A DNA stretch of 24,000 nt from an uncultured Coriobacteriaceae bacterium. GTDB lineage: Bacteria > Actinomycetota > Coriobacteriia > Coriobacteriales > Atopobiaceae. The stretch lies in NCBI GenBank assembly GCA_902801175.1, contig CADCHF010000011.1, positions 25,263 through 49,262 on the forward strand. The letters are read 5' to 3'. The notes beneath the pieces are model-generated. The model ran no database searches. It was not told where the DNA came from and was given only the letters and a program-made list of their open reading frames with translations. A program made the position numbers and the translations under genes. Shown in pieces: positions 10,610-24,000 of this stretch (position 1 is the stretch's first letter; each line of letters begins with the position of its first letter).

Positions 10610-11449
10610 ATGGAGCTCTATGCACCGGTCAACAAGATGATTCCGTTTTCGCTGGTAGATGGACCGGGATCGAGGTGCTCGATCTTTCTGCAGGGCTGCA
10701 ACATTGCCTGCGCATACTGCCACAACCCCGAGACGCAAAACCTTTGTCTTGAGTGCGGCACCTGCGTTGATCAGTGCCCAGCAGGCGCCCTGTACTGGGA
10801 TGACGGGCACGTAAGGTGGAACAAGGACGCGTGCGTGCAGTGCGACACCTGCATCCACGTGTGTCCACACAAGGCCAGCCCCAAGATTGAATGGCTTACG
10901 CCTCGCGATGTGTTTGAGACCGTGCACTCGTACCAGCCCTTCATTCGCGGTATCACCGTGTCGGGCGGCGAGTGCATGCTGCGCGCCGATTGGATGCGTG
11001 AGCTGTTTGCCCTTTGTCGAGAGGCTGGCTTGGGGACGCTCATCGACAGCAACGGGTGTGTGCCCTTTGAGGGGCAAGACGAGCTGCTGAGCGTTGCGGA
11101 TGGCGTGATGCTCGACGTTAAGGCCTGGGACGAGGCGACCTTTGAGCATCTGACCAGCGGAGACGTGCGTGTGGTCAAGCGCAACCTGGCGCTACTTGCC
11201 GAGCGAGACAAAATCGAGGAGCTGCGCATAGTTGTTGTGCCCGGCTGGAACGACCCCGAGGCAACCATCGCGGGCATCGCTGAGGTGCTGGGTCAGAAGA
11301 CCGCCGCCACCAAGCTGAAGCTCATTCGCTTCCGCAGGTTTGGCGTGGTGGGAGAGCTGGCCGAAGCGGACTCCCCCACCGACGAGCGCATGGCCGAGCT
11401 CGAGAAGCTCGCGAGGAATGCCGGCTTTGAGCTGGTGGAACTCCGCTAG
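10610..11449 (+). CDS. yjjW: YjjW-family glycine radical enzyme activase (radical SAM)
   Basis: ORF 10553..11449, trimmed to ATG 10610 (GGGGAGGG RBS, 7-nt spacer). It has the N-terminal activase motif IPFSLVDGPGSRCSIFLQGCNIACAYCHNPE (CxxxCxxC). Two ferredoxin-type motifs are present: CLECGTCVDQCP and CVQCDTCIHVCP. The SAM-binding GITVSGGEC motif is also present. Confidence 0.9.
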   Translation: MELYAPVNKMIPFSLVDGPGSRCSIFLQGCNIACAYCHNPETQNLCLECGTCVDQCPAGALYWDDGHVRWNKDACVQCDTCIHVCPHKASPKIEWLTPRDVFETVHSYQPFIRGITVSGGECMLRADWMRELFALCREAGLGTLIDSNGCVPFEGQDELLSVADGVMLDVKAWDEATFEHLTSGDVRVVKRNLALLAERDKIEELRIVVVPGWNDPEATIAGIAEVLGQKTAATKLKLIRFRRFGVVGELAEADSPTDERMAELEKLARNAGFELVELR

Positions 11450-16160: not shown

Positions 16161-16410
16161 GGCTATACCTCCCGCTTGCGCGAAACATCTCTGTAATAAT
16201 CGACTTTAATGTTACTACTTTGTTTCGACGCGTCAATACAAAAGGCAGGGGATTTTTGCCTTTGACCAACTGGCCAAGAGAAGTGCATTGCGGGCAGCTT
16301 TGCAGGTATCGCCAATATCATCTCCTGGCACACGGACTGCAGACGCGGTTGGTTTTGCCTGCCACGCCCGTGCTACCATGCCAGTGTTACGACATACGAA
16401 AGGACCTGCC

Positions 16411-17619
16411 ATGCGTTTTGACTTCACCACCATCCCGGACCGCCATGGCCACGACGCCATTGCAATTGATGGCTTGGGTGACGGCACTGGCTTTGCACCA
16501 GCCGGGCCCAAGGAAGGCTTTGACTCGATCCCACTGTGGGTTGCCGACATGAGCTTTGCCACGGCACCCTCGGTCACGCGCGCCATGCACGAGCGCATCG
16601 ACCACCCCTTCTTTGGCTACTACGCCGAAACCGACACCTATTACCAGGCCATCATCGACTGGCACGCCAACCGCAAGGGCGTCACCGACATCACGCGCGA
16701 CTGCATTGGCTACGAGAACGGCGTACTCGGAGGCGTTGTGAGCGCACTCGACGTGCTCTGCTCCCGCGGCGACAACGTGCTCGTTCACTCCCCCACCTAC
16801 GTGGGATTTACCGGCTGCTGCGAGAACAACGGCTATCACCTGGTTCATAGCCCACTCGTGCTCGACGAGGCCGGCGTGTGGCGCATGGACTTTGAAGACA
16901 TGGAGCGGCGCATTGTAGACAACAAGATCCACTGCGCCATCTTCTGCTCGCCGCACAACCCCTGCGGTCGCGTGTGGGAGCGCTGGGAGCTTGAGAAGGC
17001 CATGGCGCTCTTTGAGAAGCACGACGTGTGGGTCATCTCCGACGAGATCTGGAGCGACATCCTGCTCAACGGCAACACCCACACCCCCACGCAGCAGGTG
17101 AGCGAGTGGGCACACGAGCACACCGTTGCCCTTTACGCACCGTCCAAGACCTTCAACCTGGCCGGCCTTATTGGCTCCTACCACGTTATCTACAACCCGT
17201 GGCTGCGCGACCGCGTGCGCAAGCAGAGCTCGCTTGGCCACTACAACAGCCAGAACGTCGTGAGCATGCATGCGCTGGTTGGCGCGTACAGCGAGGAGGG
17301 CGCCGCCTGGACCAACGAGCTCTGCCAGGTGCTGTCCGCAAACGTTAACTACGCGCACGAGAAGCTGGCGTCCTACGAAGGCGTGACGTGCGCCCATCCA
17401 GAGGGCACCTATGTGCTGCTTGCCGACTGTCGCGAGTGGTGTGACGCCCACGGCGTGAGCTACGCGGACTTCCCGCGCCTGGGCTGGGATGTGGGCGTGA
17501 CCTGGCACGACGGGCGCCTGTTTGAGTGCCCGGGCTTTGTGCGCATTGCCGTGAGCGTGCCGCACTCGCAGGTAGTAGAGGCCTTTGACCGGCTGGACCG
17601 CCACGTGTTTGGTGCGTAG
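16411..17619 (+). CDS. MalY/PatB-family PLP-dependent C-S lyase (cystathionine beta-lyase-type aminotransferase class I/II)
   Basis: ORF 16288..17619, trimmed to ATG 16411. The protein starts MRFDFTTIPDRHGHDAIAI. It also contains WVADMSF, FGYY, HSPTYVGF, CSPHNPCGRVW, DEIWSD and the PLP-lysine block YAPSKTFNLAGL. Confidence 0.85.
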   Translation: MRFDFTTIPDRHGHDAIAIDGLGDGTGFAPAGPKEGFDSIPLWVADMSFATAPSVTRAMHERIDHPFFGYYAETDTYYQAIIDWHANRKGVTDITRDCIGYENGVLGGVVSALDVLCSRGDNVLVHSPTYVGFTGCCENNGYHLVHSPLVLDEAGVWRMDFEDMERRIVDNKIHCAIFCSPHNPCGRVWERWELEKAMALFEKHDVWVISDEIWSDILLNGNTHTPTQQVSEWAHEHTVALYAPSKTFNLAGLIGSYHVIYNPWLRDRVRKQSSLGHYNSQNVVSMHALVGAYSEEGAAWTNELCQVLSANVNYAHEKLASYEGVTCAHPEGTYVLLADCREWCDAHGVSYADFPRLGWDVGVTWHDGRLFECPGFVRIAVSVPHSQVVEAFDRLDRHVFGA

Positions 17620-17793: not shown

Positions 17794-18852
17794 CTACTTA
17801 CGGATGTCTCCCCTGTCCACAGAGATCTCGTAACCAATGAGATTCATGCGCAGGCCCAGGCAACCCTTGCACTGCGCGGACTCCTCGCCGGTGCAAATCT
17901 TGTTGTCGTAGAGCTCGTACTGCTTGCGAACGGCAACGGGAGACAGGTTGGGCATCACCACGTTGGCACCCGCGAGCATCCCCTTCTCGCGACCGCGCGG
18001 GTCAATGGTTCCGAGGGCCGTCGTTGCCGGCAGCAGAACGTTGGGATAGATGAGCCTTATCAGACTCAGCAGGTAAAGGGTCATGTCGAGCGTGCCGGCC
18101 GGCTCATCGCGAAACGGCGTGTCGTGGTGCGGGATAAAGGGGCCAATGCCGCACATGTCGGGCTTGAAGTCCTCCACAAAGCGCAGCTCCTGCACCAGGT
18201 GCTCCATCGTTTGGAAGGGCGAGCCGACCATGAAGCCCGCGCCAACCTGAAAGCCCACCTCACGCAGGTCGCGCAGGCACTGCATGCGATGTTCCCAGCT
18301 CATGGTTGCAGGATGCAGCCGGGCGTAGTGCTCGGGATTGGCCGTCTCGTGGCGCAGCAGGTAGCGCGATGCGCCCGCGTCAAACAGGTGCTGGTAGCTC
18401 TCGCGGTTCCGCTCTCCCATCGAGAGGGTGACGGCCGTGTCGGGGCAGCTCTCACAGATGCGGCGCACCACGTCCCCTAGCACCTCGTCGGCGTAGTACG
18501 CGTCCTCGCCGCCCTGAAGCACAATGGTGCGAAATCCCAGCTCCCAGCCCTCGCGCGCACAGTCGACAATGGTGTCGGGCTCTAGGCGATAGCGCTCCAC
18601 GTTGGTGTTTGAGCGCCTAATGCCGCAGTACAGGCAATCGTTTTTGCAGATGTTGGAAATCTCGATGAGCCCACGCACAAAGACCTTCTTGCCATAGATG
18701 GGCTCTCGGGCCTCCACCGCTTTCTCTGCCAGCAGCTCCGCCAGCTCGGGCGAGCGGTTTGCAAGCAGCGCGCGGTAACCCTCGTCATCAAGGTGATGCT
18801 CACTGGCAAGCTGGTCGACCAGCGCCACCAGCTCGGCAGATGGTTGGCTCAT
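17794..18852 (-). CDS. hydE: [FeFe]-hydrogenase H-cluster radical SAM maturase HydE
   Basis: A 352-aa ORF. IEISNICKNDCLYCGIRRSN carries the CxxxCxxC motif. Other blocks are IVLQGGED, YLLRHETANP, GAGFMVG, CGIGPFIPHHDTP, LPATTALGTI, GANVVMPN and YELYDNKIC. They match block by block the Thermotoga maritima HydE sequence as I recall it, and the length is right. Confidence 0.9.
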   Translation of the reverse strand: MSQPSAELVALVDQLASEHHLDDEGYRALLANRSPELAELLAEKAVEAREPIYGKKVFVRGLIEISNICKNDCLYCGIRRSNTNVERYRLEPDTIVDCAREGWELGFRTIVLQGGEDAYYADEVLGDVVRRICESCPDTAVTLSMGERNRESYQHLFDAGASRYLLRHETANPEHYARLHPATMSWEHRMQCLRDLREVGFQVGAGFMVGSPFQTMEHLVQELRFVEDFKPDMCGIGPFIPHHDTPFRDEPAGTLDMTLYLLSLIRLIYPNVLLPATTALGTIDPRGREKGMLAGANVVMPNLSPVAVRKQYELYDNKICTGEESAQCKGCLGLRMNLIGYEISVDRGDIRK

Positions 18853-19063: not shown

Positions 19064-19843
19064 ATGCTCAAGATTGCTCTTTATGGCAAGGGCGGCATCG
19101 GCAAGTCCACGATGACCAGCAACCTTGCCGCCGCATTTGCCACGTTGGGTAAGCGCGTCATCCAGATTGGCTGCGACCCCAAGGCCGACTCCACCATCAA
19201 CCTGCTCGGCGGGCAGCCGCTTGAGCCCGTCATGACCTACCTGCGGCTCCATGACGACGACCCCAGCTCGATCGACGAGATTGCGCGCGAGGGCTTTGGC
19301 GGAGTCCTTTGCATTGAGACCGGTGGACCCACCCCGGGCCTTGGCTGCGCCGGCCGTGGCATCATTGCCACCTTTAACCTGCTCGAGGACCTGCGCCTCT
19401 TTGAGACCTACCAGCCCGACGTGGTCCTCTACGACGTGTTGGGCGATGTGGTGTGCGGAGGCTTTGCCGCCCCCATTCGCGAGGGCTATGCCGAAAAGGT
19501 GCTCATCGTCACCTCTGGCGAGAAGATGGCCCTCTATGCGGCAAACAACATCAGCACCGCCGTGCACAACTTTGAGGACCGCGGCTACGCCAAGGTCGCC
19601 GGCATCATCCTCAACCATCGCAACGTGCCCGACGAGACCGCCAAGGTCCAGGCCTTTGCCGACGAGCACGACCTTGCCATTGTGGCCGAGATTCCTCGCT
19701 CCGACGATATCAACCGCTGCGAGGACCAGGGCATGACGGTTGTGGAAGCCGACCCGACCCTTCCCGTGAGCCGTCGCTTTATTGAGCTGGCCGAGCAGCT
19801 GCTCGCCAATGCCGAGGCCGACCACACACCCGAGCAGGAGTAA
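19064..19843 (+). CDS. NifH/BchL-family nitrogenase-iron-protein-like ATPase ([4Fe-4S] dimer type)
   Basis: A 259-aa ORF. The Walker A is [10 protein letters not shown] and switch I is GCDPKADST. Both cluster-ligand cysteines sit in canonical context: [15 protein letters not shown] (C95) and [17 protein letters not shown] (C131). These compare with NifH ESGGPEPGVGCAGRGVI and [17 protein letters not shown]. It also has [13 protein letters not shown]. Confidence 0.9.
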
Positions 19844-19845
19844 CC

Positions 19846-22242
19846 ATGCAACAAGCCGCCCGCTTCTACACGGCGGCCGAGCTCGCACGTCGAGGGGTCG
19901 ATGACCTTCCCGACGAGCTGGTTTCGTCCCGCCACCTTATCTATAGCTCGCCCGCAACACTGGCATACAACTCACCGGGTGCCGAGGGCTTTGGCGTAAA
20001 GCGCGCAGGCCTGGCCATTCCCGGCTCGGTCATGCTCGTTGTGGCCCCTGGCTGCTGTGGGCGCAACACCTCGCTCATTAGCGAGATGCCCGCCTATCAC
20101 GACCGCTTCTTCTACCTCACGATGGACGAGACCGACATTGTGACCGGACGCCACCTGCGCAAGATTCCCCAGGCGGTCGAGGAGGTCGTGGCGCGCCTCG
20201 AGACGGCACCGAGCGTGGTGATGATCTGCATCACCTGCGTCGACGCCCTTTTGGGCACCGACATGGAGCGCGTGTGCCGCCGTGCCGAGGAGCGCGCAGG
20301 CGTGCCCGTGCGGCCCTGCTACATGTACGCCCTCACGCGCGAGGGCCGCAGGCCGCCCATGGTGCACGTGCGCCAGAGCCTCTACTCGCTGCTCAAGCCG
20401 CGTCGCAAGCGTGCGACCTCGGTGAACATCATGGGCAGCTTTGCCCCGTACGCCAGCGACTGCGAGCTTTACCGCTACCTTGCCGGCATTGGCGTGCGCA
20501 CGGTGCGCGAGGTGTCCCGCTGCGCCAGCCTCGCGGAGTTTGAGGACATGGCCGAGGCAAACTTCAACCTGGTGCTGCATCCCGAGGCGCGCTTTGCAGC
20601 GGCCGACCTGCAGGAGCGTCTGCAGATTCCCTCGATTGAGCTCACCCGTCTCTATCAGCTCGACCGGATTCGTCGCCAGTACCAGGCCCTAGGCCAGGTG
20701 CTTGGGGCAAGCTTTGACGACGAGGCGGACTATGCCGCTGCCGAGGGGGCTATCGAGGCCTTCCGCGCGGCCCAGCCAGACGCAAGCTTTGCCGTGGGCG
20801 AGTGCCTTAACGCCGACCCCTTTGAGCTTGCACTGGCCCTTGTGCGCTACGGATTTGCCGTGCGCGAGGTGTTTGGCACCATCTCGGCCGAGAACTTTGT
20901 CTTTGTGCGGCACCTGGCCGAGCTTGCGCCCGAGGTTCGCGTGTACTCCAACATGGAGCCCACGATGATTCACTATGACGCCGCCGAATGCCCGGTAAGC
21001 GTTGCCCTGGGCAAGGACGCCGGCTGGTATCACCCCGAGGCCGTGTGCCTGCCGTGGAACTCCGACGTGCAGCCCTTTGGCTATGCGGGAGTACGGGCGC
21101 TCTTTGAGTCGCTGCGCGAGGCTTGCGCCGAGGATGCTGGCAAGGGCGCGGAAAGCCCCGCGCCTGCCAGCCCAGCCGACAACCTGCGCCCGCTCGACCT
21201 CGCCAAGCCGCTCCCTCGCGGCCTGCGCACCTATCTCACGCCCTTTGCGCCAGACCAGTCGGGTGCCGTGTCGGTGCTCTACGAGCTGGGTGGACTCACC
21301 GTCATCTGCGACGCAGGCGGCTGCACCGGCAACGTCTGCGGCTTTGACGAGCCGCGCTGGCACAACGAGCGCTCGGCTGTGTTTAGCGCGGGCCTGCGTG
21401 ACATGGACGCCATCATGGGTCGCGACGACAAGCTCGTGGCCGAGCTCGCCGACGCAGCCACCAAGATTGATGCCCGTTTTGCGGCCGTAGTGGGCACGCC
21501 CGTCCCGGCTGTCATTGGCACCGACTACCGGGCACTGCGCCGAATGGCAGAGCGCGCCTGCGACCTTCCGGTGGTCACGGTAGACTCCTCGGGCACGCGC
21601 CTTTACGACGACGGCGCCCGCAAGGCCTACCTCGCCCTCTTTGAGCGCTTTGCCACCGAGGAGCTGCCAGTTGTGCCCGGCCGCGTAGGTGTGATTGGCG
21701 CCAACCCGCTCGACATCGACGCGCTCGACTCGCACGAGATCTGCGAGGCCATCCCCGGTGCCGTCTGCTATGGCATGGGCGCGGGCCTCGACGACATCGC
21801 CGCAGCCTCGAGCGCCGAGCGCAACGTGGTCGTTGCCCCCTCGGGCCTTGCCGCGGCACAGCTGCTGCAGAAGCGCTTTGGCACTCCGTACGAGGTGCTC
21901 GACCCACGCGCCACGCGCATGGCGGTCCAGATGGACGTTGCGGGCAAGCGCGTGCTCATCGTCCACCAGCAGGTCACGGCAAACTCACTGCGCGAGGAGC
22001 TCCTCGCAAAGGGCGCGCTTGAGGTCAACTGCGCCACCTGGTTCATGCAGGACCGCTCCCTTGCAAAGCCGCAGGACGTCCACCTTGCCGAGGAGGCCGA
22101 CTTTGCCCGTCTTGTGGCCGAGGGCTCCTTTGACGTGATCGTGGGCGACCCCGTCCTGTGGCGCATCATTGGCAACTGGGACGGCACCACCTATGACCTG
22201 CCACAGTTTGCGGTCTCGGGAAAGCTCGGTGGAAACTCATGA
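19846..22242 (+). CDS. Single-chain fusion of two nitrogenase component-1-type (NifD/E/BchN-like plus NifK/N/BchB-like) oxidoreductase domains
   Basis: A 798-aa ORF starting 2 nt after the nifH-like stop, with AGGAG 5 nt upstream. The N-terminal half has VVAPGCCGRN (C70/C71) and VMICITCVDALLGTD (C128/C131), the xxTCxxxxIGxD block of the family. A Pro/Ala-rich linker EDAGKGAESPAPASPADNLRPLDLAKP lies at about nt 21118-21226. The C-terminal half has VICDAGGCTGNVCG (C488/C493/C498) and AAVVGTPVPAVIGTD. Confidence 0.82.
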   Translation: MQQAARFYTAAELARRGVDDLPDELVSSRHLIYSSPATLAYNSPGAEGFGVKRAGLAIPGSVMLVVAPGCCGRNTSLISEMPAYHDRFFYLTMDETDIVTGRHLRKIPQAVEEVVARLETAPSVVMICITCVDALLGTDMERVCRRAEERAGVPVRPCYMYALTREGRRPPMVHVRQSLYSLLKPRRKRATSVNIMGSFAPYASDCELYRYLAGIGVRTVREVSRCASLAEFEDMAEANFNLVLHPEARFAAADLQERLQIPSIELTRLYQLDRIRRQYQALGQVLGASFDDEADYAAAEGAIEAFRAAQPDASFAVGECLNADPFELALALVRYGFAVREVFGTISAENFVFVRHLAELAPEVRVYSNMEPTMIHYDAAECPVSVALGKDAGWYHPEAVCLPWNSDVQPFGYAGVRALFESLREACAEDAGKGAESPAPASPADNLRPLDLAKPLPRGLRTYLTPFAPDQSGAVSVLYELGGLTVICDAGGCTGNVCGFDEPRWHNERSAVFSAGLRDMDAIMGRDDKLVAELADAATKIDARFAAVVGTPVPAVIGTDYRALRRMAERACDLPVVTVDSSGTRLYDDGARKAYLALFERFATEELPVVPGRVGVIGANPLDIDALDSHEICEAIPGAVCYGMGAGLDDIAAASSAERNVVVAPSGLAAAQLLQKRFGTPYEVLDPRATRMAVQMDVAGKRVLIVHQQVTANSLREELLAKGALEVNCATWFMQDRSLAKPQDVHLAEEADFARLVAEGSFDVIVGDPVLWRIIGNWDGTTYDLPQFAVSGKLGGNS

Positions 22243-24000
22243 GCACCGTCACCCGTCGCATCCGCATGTACGGCATTGTGCAGGGCGTGGGCTTTCGCCC
22301 AACGGTAGACCGCCACGCAACGGCGACCGGCATTGCGGGCACCGTGTGCAACAAGGGTCCCTACGTTGAGATCTTTGCCCAGGGCACGCAGGAGCAGATT
22401 GACCGCTTTGTGGAGCTCATGCACACCCGTCCGCCCAAGCGCGCGACCATCGTGCGGATGGACGTCAAGCCAGTGGACGACGCACCGCAATACGAGGGCT
22501 TTTCCATCGTGGAGAGCGAGCGCACCCGCGGCGAGATCTTCATCTCGCCCGACCTCGCCATCTGCGACGACTGCCAACGCGAGCTCTTTGACCCCACCGA
22601 CCGTCGCTACCTGCACCCCTTCATCAACTGCACCAACTGCGGGCCGCGCATGACCATCCTCAACGCGCTGCCCTACGATCGCGTGCGCACGAGCATGCGG
22701 GTCTTTCCCATGTGCCCCACCTGCGCCGAGGAGTATCACAACCCGGCGAGCCGCAGGTACGATGCCCAGCCGGTCTGTTGCAACGACTGTGGGCCCGAGG
22801 TCTACCTGCTCGACAGGCCCGAGCGTGGGCGTGCGGCCATCTCTGAGGCGCGACGCATCCTGAGCGAGGGTGGCACCGTGGCCGTAAAGGGCATTGGCGG
22901 CTTCCACCTGGCCTGCGACGCCACCAACCCTGCGGCGGTGGAGCTGCTGCGCGAGCGCAAGCGCCGCTCGGCCAAGCCCTTTGCCATCATGGCGCGCGAC
23001 CTTGCCACCGCCGAGCGCGAGTGCGAGGTCTCTCCCGCAGCGAGGGAGCTGCTCTGCGGCCACCAAAAGCCCATCCTGCTGTTGCCAAAGCGCGAAGACG
23101 GGATATGCTGCGAGGCCGTGGCCCCGCACAACCCAAAGCTGGGTGTCATGCTCCCCTACGCGCCGTTGCAGCTGTTGCTCTTTAACTATGACGACGGCAT
23201 TGACATGCCCGACTGCCTGGTGATGACCAGCGCAAACGAGAGCGGAGCCCCCATCTGTCGCGACGACGATGACGCCCGCGGCGAGCTTGGGCCTCTTTGC
23301 GACGCCATCCTCTCCCACGACCGCGTCATCCGCATGCGTGCCGACGACACCGTGCTCGACCTCTTTGAGGAGCGTCCCTACATGGTGCGCCGCTCCCGCG
23401 GATGGGCACCGCTGCCCTTTGTGATCTCGGGCGGGCTTGGTGCGCGCGTGCTGGCCGTGGGAGGCGAGCTCAAGAACAGCTTTTGCCTGGGCTCGGGCGA
23501 TCTCATCTACCCCTCGCCCTACGTGGGCGACCTCTCGGACGTGCGCACCGTGCACGCCTGCGAGGACGCCATTGGGCTCTTCTCGACCCTCTTGGAGTTT
23601 GAGCCCGAGGTCGTTGCCTGCGACCTGCACCCGCGCTACAACGCCACACTCGTGGCCGAGGAGATTGCAGAGGAAAAGGGCCTGCCCGTTGTGCGCGTGC
23701 AGCACCACTATGCCCACGTGGCCGCCTGCATGGCCGAGAACGACGTGGAAGGCCCTGTCATTGGCATCTCGTTTGACGGGACGGGCTACGGCACCGACGG
23801 CACCATCTGGGGCGGCGAGGTGCTGCTCTCAAGCTACCACGGCTTTGAGCGCGTGGGTCACATTGCCCCGTTTGCGCAGGTGGGAGGCGACCTTTCGGCT
23901 CGCGAGGGCTGGCGGTGCGCCATGGCGCTCCTGCGCGACTGCAGCGAGAGCGACGACGAGGCAGCCAGTCGCGCGGAGGCTCTGGGACTTTGCACCGCTG
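22239..24000 (+). CDS. hypF: HypF carbamoyltransferase, N-terminal ~587 aa; the gene continues past the window end
   Basis: Absent from the ORF track because it has no stop in the window. ATG 22239 overlaps the upstream TGA as ATGA. The acylphosphatase domain is RIRMYGIVQGVGFRPTV. The two zinc-finger pairs are CDDCQREL...CTNCGPR and CPTCAEEY...CNDCGPE. The YrdC-like block is VAVKGIGGFHLACDA and the Kae1-like block is VQHHYAHVAACMAEN...GISFDGTGYGTDGTIWGGE. Confidence 0.92.
   Translation, partial: MSTVTRRIRMYGIVQGVGFRPTVDRHATATGIAGTVCNKGPYVEIFAQGTQEQIDRFVELMHTRPPKRATIVRMDVKPVDDAPQYEGFSIVESERTRGEIFISPDLAICDDCQRELFDPTDRRYLHPFINCTNCGPRMTILNALPYDRVRTSMRVFPMCPTCAEEYHNPASRRYDAQPVCCNDCGPEVYLLDRPERGRAAISEARRILSEGGTVAVKGIGGFHLACDATNPAAVELLRERKRRSAKPFAIMARDLATAERECEVSPAARELLCGHQKPILLLPKREDGICCEAVAPHNPKLGVMLPYAPLQLLLFNYDDGIDMPDCLVMTSANESGAPICRDDDDARGELGPLCDAILSHDRVIRMRADDTVLDLFEERPYMVRRSRGWAPLPFVISGGLGARVLAVGGELKNSFCLGSGDLIYPSPYVGDLSDVRTVHACEDAIGLFSTLLEFEPEVVACDLHPRYNATLVAEEIAEEKGLPVVRVQHHYAHVAACMAENDVEGPVIGISFDGTGYGTDGTIWGGEVLLSSYHGFERVGHIAPFAQVGGDLSAREGWRCAMALLRDCSESDDEAASRAEALGLCTA

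Follow-up and report, generated by a model that had tools for sequence, protein, structure and literature searches.

A nitrogenase-like D/K fusion protein encoded among hydE and hyp genes in Atopobiaceae: candidate component of a HydG-independent route to the [FeFe]-hydrogenase cofactor

What is a nitrogenase-like protein doing between a maturase gene of [FeFe]-hydrogenases and the first of four hyp genes? The question is raised by a 24,000-nucleotide stretch of DNA (hereafter the window) from an uncultured member of the Atopobiaceae, in which a single uninterrupted frame at positions 19846-22242 of the plus strand, running from ATG to TGA over 798 codons, encodes a protein that we call NflDK. 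A first-pass annotation of nflDK had described one open reading frame (ORF) with two Oxidored_nitro-like halves and a low-complexity linker between them, and this description holds: scanned separately, residues 1-430 score 114.8 bits and residues 455-798 score 70.2 bits against PF00148 (Oxidored_nitro), for which the gathering cut-off is 28.6 bits. Our main result lies in what that annotation did not contain, namely the gene context of nflDK (HydE, HypFCDE, a second D/K pair and no HydG). On balance, we favor the possibility that NflDK, together with the NifH-like protein NflH, serves as an ATP-driven reductase or scaffold of nitrogenase-like type in a pathway that makes the H-cluster without HydG.

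NflDK is the component-1-like partner of the adjacent NflH, and the two make up the first of two nitrogenase-like sets in a conserved module. The gene order nflH-nflDK-hypF-hypC-hypD-hypE-(nflH2)-nflD2-nflK2 recurs in 61 loci of Actinomycetota and Bacillota, with carriers among Atopobiaceae, Lachnospiraceae (Dorea, Agathobacter and others), Eubacteriaceae (Pseudoramibacter), Oscillospiraceae and Catenibacillus as well as Sarcina sp. DSM 11001. In the genome of the window (G000, 98% complete) the stop codon of nflH lies 2 nt before the ATG of nflDK, the start of hypF overlaps the nflDK stop (ATGA), and the second, unfused pair, nflD2 and nflK2, is found 5 kb downstream of nflDK. The D-like half of NflDK is a paralogue of NflD2 (27% identity over 403 amino acids) and the K-like half is a paralogue of NflK2 (33-37% identity). 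hydE stands upstream of the nfl operon and is divergent from it; in many relatives the HydE and HydF genes are contiguous with the module, and in Pseudoramibacter alactolyticus, for which the genome is complete, nflK2 is followed directly by hydF and hydE.

The motifs expected of the encoded proteins are intact. HydE has its CX3CX2C motif at residue 69, and NflH has the P-loop GKGGIGKS and both cluster cysteines, its own C95 (CAGRG) and C131 (VCGGF). HypF, the gene for which runs off the window, is encoded in full by a 791-codon gene (locus L004, 502-2877) and has the full domain set. HypC has its N-terminal cysteine, HypD has CGTHTH (for CGxHxH) and GPGCPVC, and HypE ends in PRIC. No promoter-like site was found between 18700 and 22400, where the sole terminator-like site is upstream of nflH.

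The distribution of these genes complements that of HydG. No HydG match over the cut-off was found in G000, in the 19 Atopobiaceae carriers, in the nine Lachnospiraceae carriers or in five Bacillota isolates with the module. Neither PF00374 ([NiFe]-hydrogenase large subunit) nor PF00346 was found in G000, and PF00374 was likewise missing from all 19 Atopobiaceae carriers and from all five Bacillota isolates, each of which has both HydE and HydF. G000 itself encodes HydF on another contig (C31, 533 bits) and has four matches to the H-cluster domain PF02906, with two ORFs carrying the signature H-cluster cysteine motifs; other carriers, too, have [FeFe]-hydrogenase genes wherever these were looked for. 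In a sample of 101 Atopobiaceae genomes the module was present in 19, HydG in seven and both in none; the 27 HydE-positive genomes comprised the 19 with the module, the seven with HydG and one other, and HydF was detected in 30, 26 of them with the module or HydG and four with neither. HypD occurred in exactly the 19 module genomes, and a [NiFe] large subunit in one of the 101, a non-carrier. The same exclusion was seen in a second phylum: among 121 Lachnospiraceae genomes nine had the module, 54 had HydG and none had both, and the 64 HydE-positive genomes divided into 53 with HydG, nine with the module and two others. A naive Fisher test restricted to HydE-positive genomes gave p = 2e-9 for Lachnospiraceae and 9e-6 for Atopobiaceae; these values are uncorrected for kinship and overstate the significance because related genomes are not independent.

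Several candidates that came up in this survey were set aside. An apparent hydG pseudogene in Dorea amylophila (G101:C45, 198 bits, five stops) proved to be an intact ORF of about 362 amino acids typical of ThiH, the stops falling after its end. A Lachnospiraceae genome (G110) with a protein of only 32% identity and no HydE was treated as carrying another nitrogenase-like (NFL) system and not the module. A different NFL system is likewise encoded on plasmid pTS1 of Treponema saccharophilum (locus L083, 14001-20297); there, a gene for a NifH-like protein 58% identical to NflH is accompanied by two component-1 genes and by an iron ABC transporter, but by neither hyp nor hyd genes.

HydG, a tyrosine lyase, normally produces CO, cyanide and the iron synthon before HydE and HydF act, and to our knowledge Hyp is the only other biological machinery that puts cyanide and CO on iron. 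Given that the carriers are without exactly HydG and yet have Hyp without a [NiFe] enzyme where this was checked, the most economical explanation is that the module stands in for HydG. We infer that HydE and HydF would receive from it what HydG usually makes, an iron center with CO and cyanide, for use in the [2Fe] subcluster. Carbamoyl phosphate would be the source of the cyanide, which HypF and HypE would generate and attach to iron held by HypC-HypD, and ATP hydrolysis by NflH would drive electrons of low potential through a cluster of [4Fe-4S] type at the D/K interface, for which C70/C71 and C131 (perhaps also C128) from the N-terminal half and C493 (perhaps also C488 and C498) from the C-terminal half are candidate ligands. 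By analogy with NifEN and NifDK, NflDK and NflD2K2 may serve as reductase, as assembly scaffold or as both; they might make CO, adjust the CO:CN ratio or the oxidation state of the iron, or hold an intermediate. A bolder version is that the module constitutes a complete HydG-independent route to the [2Fe] subcluster, with cyanide drawn from carbamoyl phosphate and not from tyrosine, and with two ATP-driven Nfl machines, one of them the single-chain NflDK, that give CO and/or reduced iron, act as scaffold and hand over to HydE and HydF. This version is possible, and we put it forward only tentatively.

There are clear points of contact between this scheme and the two known maturation systems. 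As in canonical maturation by HydE, HydF and HydG, HydE and HydF are common to module carriers and often contiguous, and the end product, the [2Fe] subcluster precursor, is presumably the same; the difference is that HydG is gone and has been replaced positionally by nflH-nflDK-hypFCDE-nflD2K2. The HypF, HypC, HypD and HypE known from [NiFe]-hydrogenase maturation are all present here, but their client large subunit was not found in the checked carriers, and the distribution of HypA is independent of the module. We therefore rejected a nickel arm as part of the module, since HypA occurs at the same frequency in carriers (11 of 19) and non-carriers (49 of 82; 60 of 101 overall). G000 encodes a HypA (C31:26042-26377, minus strand), following an ORF of at least 1011 amino acids with Fer4 and GltD-like Pyr_redox_2 domains, and a HypB fragment at a contig end (C46:4-390, minus strand), in a genome where no [NiFe] large subunit was detected.

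As to what kind of protein NflDK is, structure prediction shows a component-1 fold in both halves. The AlphaFold2 model as a whole has a predicted local distance difference test (pLDDT) score of 85 and a predicted template modeling score of 0.86, with residues 431-448 of the linker below pLDDT 50 and predicted to be disordered. Its top Foldseek match is the naturally fused NifEN 9i0g_A (E 2e-26 over 901 columns), followed by NifN, NifE, NifK, VnfK and BchB chains. At E <= 0.001 there were 136 fold matches in the PDB, and the best 50 of these were all nitrogenase, NifEN or dark-operative protochlorophyllide reductase (DPOR) chains. It had been allowed at the outset that the C-terminal half might turn out not to be a component-1 domain; the Foldseek alignment spans the whole chain with matches of NifEN type, and a profile of the K half matches NifE, NifN and NifK chains in the PDB.

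This resemblance does not extend to any characterized family. NflDK scored 37.8 bits against the NifDK equivalog TIGR01282 (cut-off 653.55), and against the NifEN equivalogs it scored 107.1 bits for TIGR01283 (cut-off 505), 73.7 for NF011047 (cut-off 1229) and 24.6 for TIGR01285 (cut-off 327). The BchN, BchB, BchY and CfbD models gave 23.7, 40.7, 15.0 and 40.2 bits against cut-offs of 268-490. NflH, too, fell below every NCBIfam equivalog cut-off (nifH, 304 versus 394 bits; CfbC, 298 versus 402 bits). NflDK belongs to an uncharacterized nitrogenase-like lineage. It shares with NifHDK and the NFL enzymes (DPOR, BchLNB; chlorophyllide reductase, COR; CfbCD; MarHDK; IsrHDK) the two-component logic of a NifH-like ATPase and a component-1-like partner, which in those systems bears an Fe-S cluster at the interface, but its cysteine pattern matches none of those that have been characterized.

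That pattern is strongly conserved. The cysteines listed in the first-pass annotation (C70/C71, the ICITC...GTD block and C488, C493 and C498) are all present, as is the reported loss of a cysteine from the second block of the C-terminal half, where TPVP stands in place of ITC. Six of them (C70, C71, C128, C131, C493 and C498) show no variation across 33-39 homologues, and C488 reaches at least 90% conservation; T551, P552, V553 and P554, which replace the T-C motif in the second half, are invariant as well. A canonical P-cluster is held by three cysteines from each subunit (alpha 62, 88 and 154; beta 70, 95 and 153). As yardsticks we used NifD and NifK of plasmid pDV of Nitratidesulfovibrio vulgaris, in which the P-cluster cysteines were recognized by motif and spacing: NifD has G-C-C, HGPVGC 26 residues on and A-T-C 66 residues on, and NifK has C-x-x-x-G-A, HGSQGC 25 residues on and T-T-C 58 residues on.

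In the N-terminal half, C131 aligns with the third NifD position (alphaCys154) and with NifE Cys124. C71, with C70 beside it, aligns in a global hhalign comparison with the HGPxGC cysteine of alphaCys88 type, and its spacing to C131 (60 residues) fits; phmmer and hmmsearch alignments to PDB chains mostly stop short of residue 60. The first position (alphaCys62) falls tentatively on A46, not on a cysteine, in a low-confidence hhalign alignment. In the C-terminal half, C493 aligns with the second-position cysteine of the NifE part of 9i0g (independent domain E-value 0.0039) and weakly with that of the NifN part (HGxQGC; 14), and it lies 20 residues after a GA anchor, as does betaCys95 in NifK. 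HMMER alignments place P469/D470 at the first P-cluster position of this half and P552 at the third, opposite NifE Cys124; a global hhalign of the half to NifK had a probability of 1% and is unreliable.

Cysteines are therefore found at three of the six canonical P-cluster positions (C71 of alpha88 type, C131 of alpha154 type and C493 of beta95 type), those in N-terminal regions being placed on weak alignments. Because only three of the six hold a cysteine, a canonical P-cluster is excluded for NflDK as judged from its sequence. The four additional conserved cysteines (C70 or C71, C128, C488 and C498) are no more than five residues from the kept positions. In NifEN and DPOR the alpha-type subunit contributes three cysteines to the interface cluster and its partner a single ligand, and the NflDK pattern is unlike these as well; an unusually ligated interface cluster of [4Fe-4S] type would be compatible with it. 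The earlier suggestion of ligation differing from both the P-cluster and the DPOR NB-cluster thus stands as far as the pattern goes, with the type of cluster a reasonable but unproven extension, and of the listed cysteines C71, C131 and C493 could be assigned to P-cluster positions, the mapping of the first P-cluster position being tentative. In Mo-nitrogenase the iron-molybdenum cofactor (FeMo-co) is bound by alphaCys275 and alphaHis442. NflDK has no cysteine at the aligned position: hhalign places a gap opposite the FeMo-co cysteine of NifD (LVMCH, alphaCys275), and NifE Cys250 faces Asn/His245.

There is precedent for joining the two kinds of component-1 domain in one chain. NifE and NifN occur naturally as a functional fusion in Anabaena variabilis and Geobacter metallireducens (PMC10865832), such fusions are covered by an NCBIfam model (NF011047), and the structure of the Geobacter protein (9i0g; also 9i0h) has been determined by cryo-electron microscopy; the premise of the first-pass annotation that component 1 is always built from separate chains or a homomer is therefore wrong. 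These fusions carry the alpha and beta domains in the same order as NflDK. NifEN, which is a scaffold and not a nitrogenase, also works with a NifH-type ATPase and has a [4Fe-4S]-like interface cluster, features that may have counterparts in NflDK. The likeness of NflDK to the NifE-N fusions is nevertheless only architectural: (i) the two are only about 16% identical; (ii) NflDK is without a cysteine at the first NifE position and without the L-cluster/FeMo-co cysteine of NifEN; (iii) its genomic partners are HypFCDE, HydE and HydF and not NifB, NifDK and NifX and (iv) its linker is disordered and variable.

We also considered whether the 798-residue frame might be an assembly or frameshift artefact concealing two genes, a reading to which the split of roughly half the homologous loci at the linker lends some support. 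The same single frame, however, recurs across independent assemblies: a 98%-identical protein of 798 residues is encoded in another assembly, four other genomes of the genus have the fused frame open without a stop (807-834 residues), and a database survey of the fused architecture found it in 30 of 59 related loci from GTDB species genomes. Full-length homologues of 768-876 residues form at least 120 clusters at 90% identity, and at 50% identity about two dozen cluster representatives are full-length. Moreover, the low-complexity segment (residues 429-455, nt ~21130-21210) has the codon usage of the rest of the gene (G+C at third codon positions 0.79, versus 0.81 for all of nflDK) and lacks any in-frame ATG, GTG or TTG at which translation of a separate K half could begin. 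The fusion is real, an artefact is very unlikely and we give that reading next to no weight. It follows, as had been proposed from the covalent D-K linkage, that the stoichiometry is fixed and both halves are made in equal amounts.

The remaining 29 of the 59 loci have two coupled genes, split exactly at the position of the linker. In Dorea the D-like gene ends in LLEV-TAG, with a GGAGG Shine-Dalgarno sequence overlapping the stop, followed by the ATG of a K-like gene whose product starts M-K-G-L-R-K-Y-L-T-P-F-A-P-D-Q. In loci L027-L030, L074 and L076 (at ~11279-11290) the two genes share a reading frame, and only the TAG and one further codon stand between them. One point mutation in the Dorea stop would be enough to join the frames, so that fusion can arise easily. 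Stand-alone K-like proteins in a library of representatives align from their residue 2 to residue 458 of NflDK, and the linkers of other fused homologues (~25-60 residues) are unrelated in sequence between lineages, one consisting of short charged repeats.

A maximum-likelihood tree of both halves with the linkers removed requires at least seven changes between the fused and split states, six of them forced by well-supported branches, and even within Atopobiaceae close relatives differ; the split form occurs there in one genus (four genomes) and in two further genomes of our sample. In one Atopobiaceae metagenome-assembled genome (locus L053, 10001-11284) the D-like gene has an internal stop and an open frame of 108 amino acids, the mark of a pseudogene or of an assembly error. 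The actinobacterial sequences group in a single clade with good support, placed within those of Bacillota; given the midpoint root, this suggests a single transfer of the module into Atopobiaceae. The fusion is labile and probably near-neutral, two translationally coupled genes having been joined by way of a disordered tether. It fixes the halves at a 1:1 ratio, is not required for function and is not a defining trait; being evolutionarily labile, it says little about mechanism.

Two other explanations have to be weighed against a role of the module in H-cluster synthesis. The module might build a different Fe-CO/CN cofactor for an unrecognized enzyme, with one Nfl pair as the catalytic host and HydE and HydF as co-opted helpers, and not serve [FeFe]-hydrogenases at all. 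The presence of two D/K sets would fit this, as NifEN (scaffold) and NifDK (enzyme) form such a combination, and neither D-like protein has the FeMo-co cysteine, so that any cofactor would bind in a new way. Many relatives, in addition, keep HydA-like genes without any maturase: PF02906 is found in 90 of the 101 Atopobiaceae genomes, HydF in only about 30 and HydE in only 27, which means that HydA-like genes alone do not imply a need for maturases in this family. (One widespread Atopobiaceae type of PF02906 protein has TSCSP for TSCCP; examples in G000 are at C7:24200-25060 and C1:23483-24196.) The HypCD product also differs in stoichiometry from that of HydG. What speaks against a different cofactor is that H-cluster synthesis is the only known setting of HydE and HydF and that nearly all HydE-positive genomes have either HydG or the module and never both, as substitution predicts, whereas a separate pathway would leave the constant loss of HydG in carriers unexplained. 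We consider this explanation unlikely, though by no means negligible. We give much less credence to the idea that NflDK is an ordinary substrate-reducing NFL enzyme (acting on a sulfur compound, a tetrapyrrole or another substrate, like Mar, Isr, CfbCD or DPOR) that merely sits beside hyp and hyd genes. Most characterized NFL systems are indeed substrate reductases (PMC13474568), and other NFL clusters do have unrelated neighbors, such as the iron transporter genes of the Treponema plasmid described above. Chance adjacency, however, is difficult to reconcile with the retention of hypFCDE between two nfl sets in 61 loci of two phyla, with the confinement of Atopobiaceae HypD to the module or with the lack of a [NiFe]-hydrogenase for Hyp to serve where this was checked, and all models of known NFL equivalogs score far below their cut-offs.

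The role in HydG-independent H-cluster synthesis that we favor has weaknesses of its own. Function is deduced from gene context, and the cysteines in the N-terminal regions were mapped by weak alignments and spacing, not by structural superposition. HypCD builds Fe(CN)2(CO) and the product of HydG has one cyanide and two CO, a mismatch that calls for further chemistry, and the need for two nitrogenase-like sets is not accounted for. The sampled genomes are related, so that the co-occurrence statistics overstate their independence. Finally, neither HydG nor the module was found in four of the genomes with HydF and three of those with HydE, although these may be incomplete assemblies, and at least 60 Atopobiaceae genomes encode PF02906 proteins but no HydE, HydF or HydG.

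Maturation of [FeFe]-hydrogenases without some or all of HydE, HydF and HydG is an acknowledged open question, and Greening and colleagues state that archaea probably have another pathway to the H-cluster (PMC11216029). Our search of the literature for a HydG-independent, nitrogenase-like or Hyp-dependent route with these genes found only a one-sentence remark by Dos Santos et al. 2012 (PMC3464626) on a system possibly assembling a hydrogenase metallocluster. Matched by description alone, that system is probably the nflDK module; the article does not analyze the absence of HydG, the second D/K set, the fused form or the cysteine pattern. A 2026 review of NFL enzymes, according to which the whole of group VI and most clades of group IV await characterization, mentions neither fusions nor Hyp or Hyd neighbors.

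The coordinates of the features discussed are collected in the table. Modules differ in their supply of NifH-like proteins: most of those in Bacillota (L027-L048, L057, L058, L061, L067-L071 and L074-L078) have a second NifH-like gene directly before nflD2, 41-55% identical to nflH, whereas those of Atopobiaceae have a single nflH for both D/K sets. Convergent to hydE in the window, at 16288-17619 on the plus strand, is a gene for a PatB-family C-S lyase/aminotransferase (TIGR04350, 284 bits, below the cut-off of 340).

Table. Features of the nflDK locus. Coordinates are positions in the window, except for those on contig G000:C11, which lie beyond it.
Feature	Coordinates	Strand	Basis
hydE, radical SAM [FeFe]-hydrogenase maturase	17794..18852	-	TIGR03956 552 bits (cut-off 254.6); Pfam Radical_SAM
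nflH, NifH-like ATPase / [4Fe-4S] electron donor	19064..19843	+	PF00142 294.6 bits
NflDK, D-like (alpha-type) half, residues 1-427	19846..21126	+	PF00148
NflDK, C70-C71 pair, invariant	20053..20058	+	homologue alignment; global hhalign to D. vulgaris NifD
NflDK, C128-x-x-C131 within ICITC motif, both invariant	20227..20238	+	homologue alignment
NflDK, linker, residues ~428-457, Pro/Ala-rich, not conserved	21127..21216	+	AlphaFold2; homologue comparison
NflDK, K-like (beta-type) half, residues 458-798	21217..22239	+	PF00148
NflDK, C488-x4-C493-x4-C498	21307..21339	+	homologue alignment
NflDK, T551-P-V-P554 in place of alpha/beta-type T-C (third P-cluster position)	21496..21507	+	HMMER alignments to NifE
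hypF (carbamoyltransferase)	22239..24000, runs off window	+	TIGR00143 604.5 bits (cut-off 466)
hypC	~49903-50115, contig G000:C11		
hypD	50112-51164, contig G000:C11		
hypE	~51125-52168, contig G000:C11		
nflD2	52208-53524, contig G000:C11		
nflK2	~53446-54639, contig G000:C11		

The fusion in itself is of modest interest, a minor variant with a precedent in NifEN that comes and goes among close relatives. Its practical value is that a single-chain NflDK, with the 1:1 ratio of the halves fixed, is convenient for expression and structural work. In the module as a whole, by contrast, we see a strong candidate for a new pathway to a hydrogenase cofactor. It gives concrete form to the idea of a route without HydG, and there are cultured hosts that carry it (Pseudoramibacter alactolyticus DSM 3980, Dorea amylophila and Sarcina sp. 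DSM 11001). If our reading is correct, assembly of an organometallic cofactor outside nitrogen fixation would be a third role of the nitrogenase superfamily, and the feeding of HypCDEF chemistry into an [FeFe] enzyme would be the first known crossover between maturation of the [NiFe] and [FeFe] types; the genes would also provide a new toolset for heterologous production of hydrogenases. The operon is common in Lachnospiraceae, Eubacteriaceae and Atopobiaceae of the rumen and the human gut, which are major producers of H2.

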